A DNA stretch of 64,000 nucleotides from a phage. Both the position numbers and the translations under genes were made by a program. The stretch lies in the sequence record PZ027503.1. One strand, given 5' to 3'. Below, one piece after another: positions 19,639 through 34,107 of the stretch. Every line of letters begins with the position of its first letter. Positions within the stretch are counted from its first letter, which is position 1. The notes below the pieces were generated by a model that was given only the letters and a program-made list of their open reading frames with translations, did not search any database and was not told the origin of the DNA.

Positions 19639-20022
19639 TTATTCAATGCAAGCATTATTTGCATCTTCAATGCGATCTTTCACCCATTGAAGACGTAACG
19701 TGTTGGTATGACACGCCAAGTTTATACACTCTGAAAGGTAATCCATGCAATCTGCATTGAACGGAAGATTGTAGTCCAGCCCTGCACATGTAAATTGTTT
19801 CCTCATTTCATATTTCAAACGGTCTAACAAACTATCCCGCCATCTTCTATCTTCTTCTCTAGTTGTCTCACCAACAAAATCATCTACATAATCTACCAGA
19901 CAACCACATAAGCCACTCGTTGTGCGATTCATTGCAGGATAGTTGGCAATCCATGCTTTATAGAAGCGAAGCAATGTTGCACTACTCAACGGAATATTAT
20001 TTGTCATTTTTCTCTCCTTCAT
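19639..20022 (-). CDS. paralog family A member
   Basis: ORF track; FYKAWI, GLC, RLQWVKDRI motifs. Confidence 0.55.
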   Translation of the reverse strand: MKERKMTNNIPLSSATLLRFYKAWIANYPAMNRTTSGLCGCLVDYVDDFVGETTREEDRRWRDSLLDRLKYEMRKQFTCAGLDYNLPFNADCMDYLSECINLACHTNTLRLQWVKDRIEDANNACIE

Positions 20023-20341
20023 AATCCTGAATTCTATCTAACACCCATTGTATACGATGTTTGTTTTTATGGCAAATATGTTTTTTATGTTCGAAGGTGT
20101 ATTCTTCATAACCACCTTCATTAAACGGGAAATTGTAATCTAGTCCTGCACTAATAAACTGTGATTTCATCTCCTGTTGTAGACGAGGTAACAGTTCATC
20201 AGGGTATGTTCCCTCTACATACTTAATCAAACATATGCACAAACCACTCGTTGTGTGACCTTCTACCTCACCAGTAAGCCAAGCTTTGTAAAACTTCATT
20301 AGACGTAAGCTACTCAACGGAACATTTCTACTCTCTTGCAT
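19997..20341 (-). CDS. paralog family A member
   Basis: ORF track; FYKAWL, GLC, RIQWVLDRI motifs. Confidence 0.55.
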   Translation of the reverse strand: MQESRNVPLSSLRLMKFYKAWLTGEVEGHTTSGLCICLIKYVEGTYPDELLPRLQQEMKSQFISAGLDYNFPFNEGGYEEYTFEHKKHICHKNKHRIQWVLDRIQDYEGEKNDK

Positions 20342-20680
20342 GATAATCTCCTCTCATTCTTAGCCATCTTTCATGGCAATCATCAATCACCAACATCATA
20401 CGATCAATCTTAGGGAATTACAATCGAATTATCATAGGGGATTCCTATCAATTATCCCATATATACCGATTATTTTTGACACCCCACTCTTGTATAAAAA
20501 GTAACCCAAAATATCTACGGGGAGAGATTATTTCGGGACACCCTGTTTCATGGCAATCATGGCAAGAATATCTAATAGAATCAATATGATATGGCAAAAA
20601 TCATGGCGCATACGTAAGAAGTGCTTAACGCGAACTTTCGGGCCGTCAGGTCCACGCAGCGACAATTCCCAAATATCATG

Positions 20681-20703
20681 CGAATGAGAATAATTATCAT
20701 TCG
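20681..20703. promoter_or_regulatory. operator-like palindrome CGAATGA-N9-TCATTCG
   Basis: inverted repeat seen in sequence; related motifs at 20863, 33553, 33625. Confidence 0.4.
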
Positions 20704-21117
20704 TATTCAATGACTTATGCAAGGCTCATGCCAACATAGCGACAAGGTGGGCCACTTGATTATAAATCACACAAACACTTATTTATCAATAGGTTGGCAA
20801 CTTCATCATATGACGGAACAATGTCAACTAATCCCGCTCATAACAGACAGACTATTATTTATATGAGAATGATTATTATTTAAACGTTTATTAACATAAA
20901 ACCAGAATAAATCAAGAATTTTCTGATTTTATTTACGTTTAAGAGAAGATGCTCAACATCCTACCGGATCGCCGTTGGCAATCCTGCGGATATTTACGCC
21001 CCCATGATTAAGGTTTATCTCTTTTCTTAGTGCTCAACATTCCCGCCCGTGGCGGTAACATTTCGCCCCCAAAATTATTGACTTTTATTCTATTATGTGC
21101 ATAGTGTGCAATGTATC

Positions 21118-21136
21118 GGAATGATGATAATCATCC
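21118..21136. promoter_or_regulatory. Fur-box-like palindrome (AATGATGATAATCATC)
   Basis: close match to TGATAATCATT core of enterobacterial Fur boxes. Confidence 0.35.
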
Positions 21137-21928
21137 TCCCATTGCCCCCAATAATTATTGCCATGCTAATGATCTCATATTGTAATTATTACAATGATTA
21201 TTGTTATTGCGCTAATGTTATGATCTTGGTAATTACATATAATGCTAATAATAAGCCAGCGCAATGAGTGTAAGCGTAATTACGCTTGCAATTATTGCAA
21301 GCTACGCAATAACAAGAAATAACCGTCACCGATGGTTATGATTGTTGGGGTGTAGTTGGCTTATTATTAGCTCGCTATGTGTCCGGCATAGCGTGCTAAT
21401 GATGATCCTGGGAATGATTCGTTTTGTAATGATTTCATTCAGTCACTATTATGGCAATAGTTATTATTTTAATGGTTTCGTTTGTTATTGTTCGTTAGTT
21501 GGTTGTTTTGTCGTGTTATCGTTATTTTGCTTAGTATTCATCATGGTTTGATTGTTTGTCGTTATCAATCATCTTGCTATTATTCCTTTGATTATGATTA
21601 GTTTGCTTATTGTTTTATGTTGTTTGTTGGTTAGTTGTTGCGAACTATTATCAACATTATAATTATGCGCTTATATTGCATAGATAATCATGGGTAGATG
21701 ATAATGGTTATCATTGCACTAGAAAGGAGGTAGAAGGGTGTTTTTGATGGTTTGTTGTTGGTTGTTGATCGATTTTAACCGCTATAAATGGCTCTCTAAC
21801 AGCCTGTTACCCTGGGAGGTATGGTTATTCGTTTAATGGTTGATTAGCTCGATACCGCGATTTATTCAATTTTGTTCTGTGTCGGTTTTTCATAGGCGAA
21901 AGCTATCAACATTGTTCGGGCAAAAAGA

Positions 21929-21949
21929 AAGGGCGCTTGGTGCGCCCTT
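21929..21949 (-). terminator. terminator at distal end of island
   Basis: AAGGGCGCTTGGTGCGCCCTT hairpin flanked by T-runs. Confidence 0.5.
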
Positions 21950-21962
21950 GTTTTGTTGTCAA

Positions 21963-22382
21963 TTATAACGCTTCATAGATTGAGTAGATCCGGTTTGCCA
22001 GGTCATTACGAAAGCGGAATTTTTCATCACGTTTGATCATCAGATCCTTAAAACCGCATTCTTTCAGTGCTTCATTAACTTTACTGCGGCATACTTTCAT
22101 ATTGTCCTGCGCGTCACCAATAAACTTGTTACTATGATGCATTGCTTTGATCTCTTCTTCCAGGACCAGGGCAACTACACGGATCGGATCAAGCTGATAC
22201 GCGGTAACATCCATGCGGCATTGTAAACGGCTTTTAACGTCTGCCACCGGATATACTGCAACCTCTTCCCCGTCAACGTTCACAATAACCAATTTACCAT
22301 CGATTTCGAAGCCTTTAGCGGCGCTACCGTGACAAAAAGCGTTGTCGAAGGAGTAAGCTGGATTATTTGATTTAATGTTCAT
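21963..22382 (-). CDS. hypothetical protein (139 aa)
   Basis: ORF track; promoter TTGACA inside hairpin at 22440-22470. Confidence 0.6.
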   Translation of the reverse strand: MNIKSNNPAYSFDNAFCHGSAAKGFEIDGKLVIVNVDGEEVAVYPVADVKSRLQCRMDVTAYQLDPIRVVALVLEEEIKAMHHSNKFIGDAQDNMKVCRSKVNEALKECGFKDLMIKRDEKFRFRNDLANRIYSIYEAL

Positions 22383-22492
22383 GGTGTTGTCCTTTGTTTC
22401 GTTTCGTTGTTTGCTGCCAGTGAGTTAAATATAATATAACGCCGATCCCCTGTCAATAGGGGATAGCGCATTATTTACATTTCTTTACGTTA

Positions 22493-22513
22493 AAGGGCGC
22501 TTAGTGCGCCCCT
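22493..22513 (-). terminator. stem-loop, weak terminator
   Basis: AAGGGCGCTTAGTGCGCCCCTT hairpin after stop at 22523. Confidence 0.4.
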
Positions 22514-22522
22514 TGTACAATC

Positions 22523-27753: not shown

Positions 27754-27774
27754 TAAAAAGAAAGGGCGCTTGGT
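27754..27774 (-). terminator. intra-island terminator
   Basis: AAGGGCGCTTGGTGCGCCCTT hairpin followed by CTTTTTAC on minus strand. Confidence 0.45.
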
Positions 27775-27788
27775 GCGCCCTTGTTATG

Positions 27789-27935
27789 TTAATCCTCTAA
27801 ATCCATCCAATTATATTTGTCACTCTTCCCGCGCTTTGTTTTATTGCGCTTGTCGCCTTTGCGGATCACTTCCTCGTTCCAGGCCTTGCGGATCTTGGAA
27901 GATTGAATTTTTTCTGCGCGATTAGATGTATTCAT
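27789..27935 (-). CDS. small basic protein (48 aa)
   Basis: hand-translated MNTSNRAEKIQSSKIRKAWNEEVIRKGDKRNKTKRGKSDKYNWMDLED; AGAGGAAACA RBS. Confidence 0.4.
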   Translation of the reverse strand: MNTSNRAEKIQSSKIRKAWNEEVIRKGDKRNKTKRGKSDKYNWMDLED

Positions 27936-33036: not shown

Positions 33037-33303
33037 ATGACAAATACTACATTACACCTTATGCACTCATTGGGCTGGCAAGGCGGCACGGTGCACCAGG
33101 TAGCAAGCGCAACGGGCTTAAAGGTTGAAACAGTTCTCAACCTGGGCGATCATAAGGTGGAAGAGATAGATCATTTTGATTCGTTCGCTGATGGTTATTT
33201 ATGGGCTTGCAGTGGCGGCGGGGAAAGCAAGATACCGCCAGGGGAGCGGGGTAATATGTATTTTTGGTTAGGTGTCCTATCCTGGCAAGAAGATAAAAAA
33301 TAA
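33037..33303 (+). CDS. hypothetical protein (88 aa)
   Basis: ORF track; isolated rightward ORF in hub, weak RBS. Confidence 0.35.
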   Translation: MTNTTLHLMHSLGWQGGTVHQVASATGLKVETVLNLGDHKVEEIDHFDSFADGYLWACSGGGESKIPPGERGNMYFWLGVLSWQEDKK

Positions 33304-33552
33304 TCTTGACAAGCCCAGGGATCGGGCTTATACTGTTTTACATACAGAAGAGGAAGCGCCACCCCACGGCGTAAAGGCGGGGCTAACATACCAGGGCGCT
33401 GGTTGGAAGGTTGATCGCCGGTAGGCTGGGCGCTATATATTTGTAAAGAAATGTAAAGATAAAATAATCGCTTGCTTTCCTGGCTGGATCTGTTATTCTT
33501 ATTACATGGCGAGGGGACACGGGAGCGCGAGACAAACACCACCCCTGCGCGT

Positions 33553-33670
33553 CATTCTCTAGATGAGAATGATTATCATTCACCTTATTAAATAAGAATC
33601 AATCTCATTTATAAACTTAAATGCGAATCATTATCATTTGCATTTCCATATGAGAACTCTTCTCATTCTC
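33553..33670. promoter_or_regulatory. cluster of operator-like palindromes (TCATTCTC/GAGAATGA, GAATGATTATCATTC, GAATCATTATCATT)
   Basis: overlapping inverted repeats seen in sequence; same motif family as 20681 and 20863. Confidence 0.45.
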
Positions 33671-33686
33671 ACCTGCATAAATTTTT

Positions 33687-33863
33687 GTAAACTTTAAATT
33701 TTGCTTTTGTACTTTCATTTTTGTAAAAGCAAAAAAACTTTAAATACTGTGGGCGCGCAAAATTTTTAAAATTTTCCTTGACTTTTGAGTTTTGTTTTGT
33801 ATCTAACATTTTAAGATAATTTTCCTAAACTTTAAATTTTGGTTTTCAACTTTCACTTTTGTA
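33687..33863. repeat. two 39-bp direct repeats (35/39 identical) plus partial copies, iteron-like
   Basis: AAACTTTAAATTTTGCTTTTGTACTTTCATTTTTGTAAA at 33687 and 33825; AT-rich. Confidence 0.5.
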
Positions 33864-34024
33864 AATTCTTAAAAAGTTTAAATAATTTGAGGGATTTTTG
33901 AGATAATGGATAGTGGGAATTTGATATAACCTTTAATCTTATTAGTAGACCTTCAGGAACCCACTTAGATCGAATCCTAGTGATGCAAACTGAAAAAGAT
34001 AAGGGTTTGTATAGGACAAAATAA

Positions 34025-34055
34025 CAGGCTCTCTACGGTGCTGTAGGAGCCTTAT
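34025..34055. terminator. bidirectional terminator
   Basis: GGCTCTCTACGGTGCTGTAGGAGCC hairpin with T-rich flanks. Confidence 0.5.
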
Positions 34056-34107
34056 TTCTATGCTACAAAGTGACACCTTTGTTCTAAAAATGAAAAAAGT
34101 TAAAATA

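Follow-up and report, generated by a model that had tools for sequence, protein, structure and literature searches.

A gene-free region of a Phapecoctavirus genome that contains the counterpart of its relatives' direct terminal repeat and a conserved strand-specific fold

Why would a phage keep more than 1.6 kb of its DNA free of genes? The question is raised by positions 20342-21962 of the window, that is, of the whole 64-kb stretch analysed here (64,000 nucleotides of record PZ027503.1), whose source is a Phapecoctavirus, a phAPEC8-like myovirus of about 150 kb and an E. coli phage of the subfamily Stephanstirmvirinae. The region is 1621 nt long and contains no open reading frame (ORF) of at least 100 amino acids (aa), and no longer gap of this kind is found anywhere in the window. 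A first-pass annotation, made from the sequence, had drawn attention to this unusual length and had suggested that it may mark a terminal or packaging region, an origin, or the border of two transcriptional modules. Most of the features that it listed are real, namely the gap itself, a 15-mer (TTTCATGGCAATCAT) that occurs exactly twice in the window, many palindromes, and a T/G-rich tract at about 21340-21660 (T 0.49, G 0.21, A 0.19, C 0.11). The clustering of GATC sites that it also reported is not: the region has 6 of them, or 3.8 per kb, which is less than the 5.1 per kb of the window. Its suggestion of a packaging or terminal region agrees with what we found, as 20627-20953 is where the direct terminal repeat of this group of phages lies. 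The best explanation of the stretch, and one that we hold to be likely, is that a myovirus with short direct terminal repeats has its terminal or concatemer-junction region here.

The direct terminal repeat and its boundaries

The evidence for the repeat comes from the genome records of relatives (the features discussed here and below are collected in Table 1). The linear record of Schickermooser has identical 329-bp copies at its two ends, with 97% identity to window positions 20626-20947. Likewise, Mt1B1_P17 has identical 328-bp end copies that start with AACGCGAATTTTCGG and end with TTTAAGAGAAGATGCT, exactly at window positions 20627 and 20953. In phage phi92, from the sister genus Justusliebigvirus, a 343-bp sequence whose boundaries are homologous is annotated as a 'right end direct terminal repeat', and the record of BME3 starts at the same base as the homologue of position 20627 and shares both boundaries. 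In phi92 and BME3 these boundaries read GTGCTT/AACGCGA and GCT/CAACA, where the slash marks the edge of the repeat. For Klebsiella phage phi1_175008, the linear record terminates at the homologous boundary base, and several linear records begin or end inside the query region at one same base. Defined termini, which the first-pass annotation had named as a point to be checked, are therefore what the relatives have, with linear records that start or end at the homologues of 20627 and 20953.

Published descriptions give 328 bp for the terminal repeat of Schickermooser (Korf et al., PMC6563267) and, from PhageTerm, 342 bp for that of BME3 (PMC12210895), and Stephanstirmvirinae genomes are said to end in direct terminal repeats (PMC12695924). 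We used BME3 for the boundaries only, since the right end of its record duplicates more than the repeat. The first 788 nt of that record (PP239276) recur near its right end, and the repeat annotated there as 'DTR-L' sits 73 nt before the end of the record. The BME3 ends as deposited thus look partly misassembled.

The two edges of the repeat share a motif, TGCTYAAC, of which the plus strand of the window holds 5 copies, 3 of them at 20622, 20950 and 21031. Both boundaries are conserved in the five Stephanstirmvirinae groups that we compared, each with TGCTYAAC, and the two motifs lie 320-343 bp apart in all genera examined. The flank of the left boundary, GTGCTTAACGCGA, is also conserved across genera. 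Just past the right cut site (20960-20980), an 18-nt indel separates sublineages. The repeats of phi92, Schickermooser, BME3 and Mt1B1_P17 thus share with the present one a homologous locus and homologous boundaries; those of Phapecoctavirus are 97% identical, Justusliebigvirus keeps both boundary motifs, and we see no difference of substance. Positions 20627-20953 are the repeat unit found at both virion DNA ends of close relatives, and the same placement is expected, by homology, in the virion of this phage. The source record is permuted with respect to the physical ends of the genome, and this is why the repeat is interior in the window. The reading as a terminal region is well supported, and its core, the terminal repeat, is already known from phi92, Schickermooser, BME3 and Mt1B1_P17, and so for the subfamily.

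The remainder of the stretch is non-coding. All 21 of its ORFs of at least 25 aa have in-frame stops in relatives or lack a counterpart in other genera; most are already broken by stops in the nearest divergent relatives, and none is kept open in other genera, which agrees with the first-pass view that there is no credible ORF. Hidden small genes were rejected, as no ORF withstands comparison with relatives. A 39-aa ORF (21482-21601) is open only within the near-identical mosaic block of Wec179 and Wec188, and a 32-aa ORF at 21738 with a strong Shine-Dalgarno sequence was rejected because a stop codon interrupts it in Wec179 and Wec188 and its start is not conserved. The region contains no tRNA or tmRNA, no DnaA box (TTWTNCACA) and no Chi site, and a search of it with Rfam 15 gave zero matches at the gathering threshold and just two chance-level matches to snoRNAs, with E up to 5.

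The stretch recurs at 94-98% identity in about 50 Phapecoctavirus records, in nearly all of which it is unannotated. A more sensitive search found partial matches in Justusliebigvirus (phi92-like phages) and in Klebsiella and Citrobacter phages of the subfamily that are unclassified, and the last 80-110 nt are also matched in Av-05, a member of the Vequintavirinae, and in two other coliphage records. Some matching records carry other host labels: MG065650 ('Campylobacter phage') and OP562383 ('Acinetobacter phage') have the region at 95-98% identity, MG065645 and MG065689 ('Campylobacter phage') match in part at about 79%, as Justusliebigvirus does, and a 'Pseudomonas' record matches as well. 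These non-enterobacterial host labels are probably wrong, or the isolates contaminants.

Phages T7 and T3 have a terminal repeat of 160-230 bp, with packaging signals immediately within one end and early promoters at the opposite one. The present region is like theirs in that a short exact repeat with fixed boundaries is found at both ends, non-coding cis elements flank it, inverted repeats lie near the junction and the first-expressed small genes read inward from one end. In the orientation of Schickermooser and phi92, the left-end repeat is followed by 284 bp and then by small genes that read inward, and the right end consists of about 970 gene-free bp and then the repeat. The differences are that this is a 150-kb myovirus without a phage RNA polymerase, that its repeat is about twice as long, that the two boundaries share a motif and enclose a conserved IHF-consensus site at the repeat centre, and that the neighbouring structure is a covarying multi-branch fold and not a simple palindrome; no sequence similarity is expected.

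Under a T7-type scheme, terminase would cut the concatemer at the two boundary motifs during packaging, and the 327 bp between the cuts would be duplicated, with one copy for each genome end. A bend of the IHF type at the repeat centre, together with the palindromic boxes about 80-100 bp to either side, would fold the repeat and pair the cut sites. The gene-free side of 1 kb, with its cut-site-like repeats, GCTAATRAT copies, fold and C-poor tract, would be a cis-acting start of packaging, of replication, or of both, and would be shielded from incoming transcription by the terminator and possibly also by the G-poor minus strand of the tract. The opposite side would bear the promoter for the first-expressed genes, and the boxes would be operators for host Fur or for a phage regulator of like specificity. 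These roles of the Fur-like boxes, the C-poor tract and the fold are ones that we infer.

Table 1. Features of the gene-free region, in window coordinates (a slash in a boundary motif marks the edge of the repeat)
Feature	Position	Strand	Remarks
Spacer between repeat and first small gene	20342-20626	-	Two copies of TTTCATGGCAATCAT (20369, 20546); 24-nt tandem repeat at 20407-20456
Putative sigma-70-like promoter	20479-20474 and 20456-20451	-	TCAAAA, 17-nt spacer, GATAAT; consensus match
Alternative reading of putative promoter	20496-20469	-	TATACA-16-AATAAT; consensus match
Left boundary motif TGCTT/AAC	20622-20629	+	Repeat begins at 20627
Direct terminal repeat unit	20627-20953		327 bp; homologous terminal copies in relatives
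Palindromic box 1, AATGAGAATAATTATCATT	20683-20701		One mismatch to Fur 7-1-7 core TGATAATNATTATCA; conserved in Justusliebigvirus
Match to IHF core consensus, WATCAANNNNTTR	20784-20796	+	Consensus TATCAATAGGTTG; repeat centre
Palindromic box 2, TATGAGAATGATTATTATT	20862-20880		Two mismatches to Fur 7-1-7 core
Right boundary motif TGCT/CAAC	20950-20957	+	Repeat ends at 20953
Variable repeat-rich segment	20954-21242	+	Least conserved part of region
Further Fur-like match	21120-21138		Pattern match in variable segment
Conserved folded element, about 155 nt	21243-21395	+	Covariation; flanked by GCTAATRAT at 21244 and 21395
Long-range helix, 15 bp	21243-21257 with 21357-21371	+	Encloses hairpin arms, including 21321-21342
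Invariant single-stranded GGTGTAGTTG	21345-21354	+	Within folded element
External hairpin	21373-21393	+	3' of long-range helix
T/G-rich, C-poor, AT-rich tract	21400-21660	+	GC 0.28-0.30; no conserved ORF
Operator- or promoter-like cluster	21664-21715	+	Inverted repeat TTATGC..GCATA; TTGCAT (21676-21681), 18-nt spacer, GATAAT (21700-21705); box 3
Palindromic box 3, GATGATAATGGTTATCATT	21697-21715		Fur-like; encloses -10-like GATAAT (21700-21705)
Sequence-conserved blocks	21839-21908		TTGATTAGCTCGATACCGCGATTTATTCA and palindrome CATAGGCGAAAGCTATCA (TGATAG..CTATCA type); kept in Av-05
Intrinsic terminator hairpin	21929-21949	-	8 pairs, 6 of them G-C; tail TCTTTTT; closes upstream minus-strand genes

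Candidate protein sites in the repeat and in its flanks

Near the centre of the repeat lies a match to the core consensus for IHF, one of 8 in the 64 kb. It recurs on the same strand, 158-162 nt into the repeat, in Mt1B1_P17, BME3 and phi1_175008, and Wec179 and Tr1 each have one same-strand match within the repeat. Palindromic boxes 1 and 2 stand one on each side of it, about 98 and 81 bp from its centre. These boxes, like box 3 farther to the right, resemble the Fur box of Enterobacteria (GATAATGATAATCATTATC): the Fur 7-1-7 core is found with 1-2 mismatches each at 20685, 20864 and 21699, and the homologue of box 2 in BME3 is a perfect match (TGATAATGATTATCA). With up to 2 mismatches allowed, the core occurs 6 times in the 64 kb, of which 3 are in the region, against 0.07 expected from region resamples, and 2 are in a second gene-free region (33300-34107). 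In the latter, at 33560-33667, the same box family forms an array with a period of about 29 bp, in which two copies are good Fur-like matches and the others are weaker.

The arrangement invites comparison with cosB of phage lambda, where sites for the small subunit of terminase, R3-R1, are placed around an IHF site, I1, beside the cut site. The likeness, by sequence match, is that an IHF-consensus site is flanked by repeated boxes of a protein-site kind near cut sites; the difference is that here two cut sites lie 327 bp apart, as opposed to a 12-nt stagger, and that the boxes are Fur-like and recur elsewhere. Candidate repeats for binding of the small terminase subunit are the boxes at 20683 and 20862, the three copies of TGCTCAAC and the four of GCTAATRAT, of which the boxes are found again at 33560-33667. 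Because they match the Fur box nearly perfectly and recur at another regulatory region, we regard the boxes as less likely to be terminase sites than operators, to which either host Fur or a phage regulator of the same specificity would bind.

An operator role leads to a further reading of the region, namely an iron-sensing switch. Fur bound at 20683, 20862, 21120, 21697 and 33560-33667 would repress the promoters that these sites overlap (TTGCAT-18-GATAAT, 21676-21705); in a variant, Fur would be titrated away by the replicating phage DNA, and iron uptake by the host would be derepressed as a result. Consistent with this reading, the boxes match 12-13 of the 14 specified positions of the Fur core (all 14 in the BME3 homologue), box 3 lies over a conserved -10-like hexamer in the classical geometry of repression, and the boxes are conserved into the Vequintavirinae. 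Units of the 7-1-7 and 9-1-9 kind are, moreover, reviewed and accepted as minimal Fur sites (PMC2189734). However, the case is one of sequence resemblance, AT-rich palindromes are a common type of operator and might belong to a phage regulator, the genes downstream include none related to iron, and our literature searches gave no report of Fur sites in these phages. The setting also differs from that of known Fur boxes, as these boxes lie in the terminal repeat and regulatory regions of a virulent phage and not upstream of iron genes. An iron switch is, in our view, a tentative proposal that is more probably wrong than right.

To the left of the repeat, the best-conserved part is a block at about 20440-20500 that is nearly invariant across genera, and the block at about 20450-20500 is a putative promoter of the inward-reading small genes, judged by its consensus matches. 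The genes on both flanks are on the minus strand, with the downstream set beginning at 20341 and the upstream set ending at 21963, and the flanking proteins are small, have no assigned function and match no Pfam family. The region therefore also lies, as the first-pass annotation had suggested, at a boundary between transcription units, with a terminator on one side and this conserved promoter-like block on the other. The first two genes past the repeat (ORFs 20341..19997 and 20022..19639, on the minus strand between 19639 and 20341) are paralogues, both of phrog_2510, a family of unknown function; relatives carry one or two copies of this gene, and the block is exchanged between lineages.

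A folded element and a C-poor tract beside the repeat

To the right of the repeat, an element of about 155 nt keeps its base pairs by compensatory change, and on the plus strand only. When 12 sequences that represent five groups of the subfamily are aligned, the consensus has 48 pairs, all 576 cells of which are paired (100%), and 12 pairs show changes on both sides; over all the analyses of the fold, the figures are 48-61 pairs, 93-100% of cells paired and 12-16 compensatory pairs. Neither the observed pairing nor the observed covariation was attained in any of 500 column shuffles, and when partners are slid by 1-3 columns the pairing falls to 26-55%. The long-range helix occurs in four complementary versions (AAGCCA with TGGCTT, AACGCA with TGCGTT, ACCGCA with TGCGGT and AACACA with TGTGTT), the hairpin at 21321-21342 in five and that at 21373-21393 in four. 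One apical hairpin has been swapped in Justusliebigvirus and KP2025 for an unrelated sequence that again forms a hairpin. A variant in which one long arm replaces two hairpins is also supported, and we therefore do not claim the exact topology of the junction.

The strand preference appears in the folding energies, which are -77.6 kcal/mol (z -9.8) for the plus strand and -52.6 for the minus strand with RNA parameters, and -42.6 kcal/mol (z -8.1) and -33.0 with DNA parameters. It also appears in the pairs themselves. Across 17 distinct sequences, 765 cells are Watson-Crick pairs, 51 are G.T and none is A.C, in an alignment fitted to a model that favours pairing but does not favour G.T over A.C; eight pairs alternate between Watson-Crick and G.T, and none between Watson-Crick and A.C. 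A protein site on duplex DNA would give both kinds equally, and the element therefore acts as single-stranded RNA or DNA of the plus strand. By its covariance model, each genome has exactly one copy, in every Stephanstirmvirinae group examined. Pattern scans of IMG/VR returned only 2 and 4 contigs, and in those examined with this model the element is the same. In Klebsiella phages (L020, 1819-2010; L018, 490-630) there are several GCTAATAATACC repeats, each followed by a partial inverted copy (GGTTATTAG), and this row of small hairpins resembles the long-range helix minus its insert.

These results raise the possibility that the folded element, with or without its C-poor tail, is a plus-strand non-coding RNA gene whose place beside the repeat is incidental and which acts on host or phage expression, for example as a sponge for an RNA-binding protein, as a primer RNA or as a regulator. 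Structured RNAs usually show covariation of this strength, each of the 51 non-Watson-Crick cells is G.U when read on the plus strand, the RNA energies favour that strand and the element is single-copy throughout the groups examined. In this phage, a promoter-like TTGACT-16-CATAGT lies 166 nt upstream, and the distal hairpin at 21929-21949 could end a plus-strand RNA too. Across genera, however, no promoter upstream of the element is conserved in position, no terminator directly follows the element, and the plus-strand T-rich tail of the distal hairpin is lost in Justusliebigvirus; no Rfam family covers the element, and literature searches gave no transcript maps for these phages. The first-pass annotation had held that an RNA gene explaining the region would count against its view of it; a covarying element does exist, but it covers only a tenth of the stretch. 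We regard a separate RNA gene as possible, with the odds against it. A repeat RNA like the antitoxin mimic pseudo-ToxI of phage phiTE was rejected: Tandem Repeats Finder gives only arrays of 2-4 copies with periods of 7-24 nt and no tandem repeats of about 36 nt. The phiTE pseudo-ToxI locus sits in a different intergenic region (PMC3475682).

Between the repeat and the folded element, the variable segment holds a second cut-site-like TGCTCAAC at 21031, followed by a GC hairpin; an extra GCTCAACA copy with a GC hairpin recurs in tuntematon, Tr1, KP2025 and KP13-26. Three CGCCCCCA..ATTA boxes lie at about 20997, 21064 and 21143. The motif GCTAATRAT occurs in four copies, on the plus strand only, at 21165, 21211, 21244 and 21395, and in up to nine in KP13-26.

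The T/G-rich tract on the other side of the fold has, among the 200-nt windows, the most negative AT skew (-0.54) and the highest T fraction (0.55) of the whole window, and holds all 8 of the windows of highest T+G purity (0.745, against a mean of 0.504 and a standard deviation of 0.050). The property that is kept across genera is C depletion of the plus strand, with 1-8 C per 60 nt over 250-400 nt in all of them; the T/G richness itself is not conserved, and the homologous stretch of other genera is A/T/G-rich and up to 110 nt longer. Cross-phage conservation of the tract, which the first-pass annotation had marked as worth checking, thus holds for the depletion of C, in a region that is itself kept in about 50 relatives. 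The low-complexity pseudo-ORFs that it described there are present, and none is conserved.

The same part of the region (about 21160-21660) could be mainly a replication origin, which would be compatible with an adjoining terminal repeat. GCTAATRAT would then serve as iterons for an initiator, the C-poor tract of 28% GC as the unwinding element, and the hairpin cluster on the unwound plus strand as the place where primase-helicase is recruited. Direct repeats in a single orientation (four here at 21165-21395, up to nine in KP13-26) do lie beside an AT-rich tract of 28-30% GC, this AT-rich and strand-asymmetric tract is kept in all genera, and the strand-specific fold is stable with DNA parameters too. 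An excess of G over C and of T over A is the direction of skew expected for a strand that is often single-stranded, and we counted it for an origin. Arguing the other way, the region has no DnaA box, no recognisable initiator or replication gene adjoins it, and the cumulative GC skew tracks the direction of transcription, with no turning point here. The second gene-free region, with its long direct repeats, is moreover an equally good candidate. Taken together, we think it rather unlikely that this kilobase is mainly an origin.

The second gene-free region (33300-34107), which could be an origin or a regulatory hub, has a near-consensus promoter-like site, TTGACA-17-TATACT, at 33307-33335 on the plus strand, two 72-nt direct repeats that are 82% alike (33680-33751 and 33818-33889), and the 200 nt of lowest GC in the window (0.22, at 33681).

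The least probable explanation is that the stretch is decayed coding sequence or neutral spacer, with its skew produced by mutation bias alone. The low-complexity pseudo-ORFs and a lag-3 periodicity in this phage's tract (z 3.9) would fit such a history, but the periodicity is absent in other genera and no ORF is conserved; there are several blocks without variation between subfamilies, one fold is held by covariation, and the region is retained as a unit while recombination exchanges its flanks. We consider decay highly improbable. Period-3 or helical periodicity was also rejected as a property of the tract, as it is inconsistent across genera.

Several points weigh against the preferred explanation, that of a terminal or concatemer-junction region, and against the mechanism built on it. 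The window holds a single copy of the repeat, as any circularised assembly would, so that the ends of this phage are taken from its relatives, and the T7 scheme is applied to this group by analogy. The sites for IHF, Fur and terminase are candidates by sequence match; in the Klebsiella phages and in Tr1 the search pattern picked up no Fur-like box within the repeat, and the occurrence of the box family 13 kb away, at 33560-33667, speaks against a packaging-specific role. Across genomes, 190-465 bp separate the right cut and the folded element, a variation that makes a rigid geometric link unlikely. A strand-specific fold needs a single-stranded nucleic acid, which recognition of double-stranded DNA by terminase does not supply; simple models of resection or strand displacement would, by our own reasoning, not expose the plus strand here, and the lack of a positionally conserved upstream promoter bears on this reading as well.

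A bolder proposal can be made. The fold, with or without its nearly C-free tail of 250-400 nt, would represent an undescribed family specific to Stephanstirmvirinae, a single-stranded RNA or DNA of the plus strand that starts replication or processing of the junction, and recruitment of Fur and IHF to the repeat would tie end processing or early transcription to the iron status of the host. We put this forward as speculative and as doubtful in its full form.

Distal blocks, relatives and significance

Toward the right end of the region, the arrangement at 21664-21715 is conserved in Justusliebigvirus, the Klebsiella phages and Av-05. Within 21839-21908, TTGATTAGCTCGATACCGCGAT is invariant across genera; an 11-sequence alignment of these blocks gives no supported fold, and they are probably protein sites on DNA, to judge by their sequence conservation. 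A structured small RNA running from the TTGCAT site to the terminator (21676-21958) was rejected, with a covariation term of +0.27 in 11 sequences and a plus-strand T-tail that is not conserved. The minus-strand tail of the terminator is conserved across genera, whereas the plus-strand T-rich tail of this phage is lost in Justusliebigvirus. The hairpin sequence of the terminator (AAAGAAAGGGCGC..GCGCCC) is reused at no fewer than three places in the minus-strand block, at least at 21929-21949, 22492-22516 and 27755-27790.

Outside the subfamily, Av-05 has a gene-free gap of about 1.9 kb (L008, 1222-3138) with TTGCAT-N18-GAGAAT and its box, the TTAGCTCGATACCGCG block and a TGATA..TATCA palindrome beside a homologous terminator. 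Unlike the present region, it has no match to the covariance model, and a homologue of the folded element in the Vequintavirinae was rejected on that ground; it has long-range inverted repeats of its own (GCGACACAATAACGC .. GCGTTATTGTGTCGC, at about 2617-2697), which may be an analogous structure. The genome paper of rV5, also of the Vequintavirinae, marks just a 'non-coding' box (Figure 2, PMC3606486).

The injection-stop region of phage T5 is a non-coding segment, rich in repeats and palindromes, inside the terminal repeat. It is like the present region in being a gene-free, repeat-rich kilobase near a genome end. Here, however, the segment lies outside a very short repeat and has no DnaA boxes, and two-step DNA entry is not known for this group.

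Identity among relatives is mosaic. At a junction near 21228, the identity of phiWec179 and phiWec188 jumps from about 62% to about 95%, and the high identity of the right half in these two phages was rejected as evidence of function, as it belongs to a mosaic block that runs into the flanking genes. In SF1-1, the right-hand flank has been replaced from about 21942 on.

In the literature that we searched there is no description of the boundary motif, the central IHF-type site or the Fur-like boxes, nor of the GCTAATRAT repeats, the covarying fold or the conserved depletion of C. The region is thus an ordinary kind of feature, the ends of a phage with short terminal repeats, with cis elements that are unusually rich and well conserved. 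Recognition of 20627-20953 as the terminal repeat fixes the true ends and the orientation of the genome, in a group in which most of the approximately 70 related GenBank records are arbitrarily permuted and leave the region blank. Its anatomy of motifs, IHF-type bend and boxes offers a testable model for how terminase coordinates two cuts that lie 327 bp apart, and in the plus-strand fold it has a clean candidate for a new RNA or single-stranded DNA element of phages, at a place where signals for packaging and replication are expected. As these are broad-host-range phages used in therapy work, their ends, their packaging signals and any control by iron matter for their engineering and for their behaviour in the gut.

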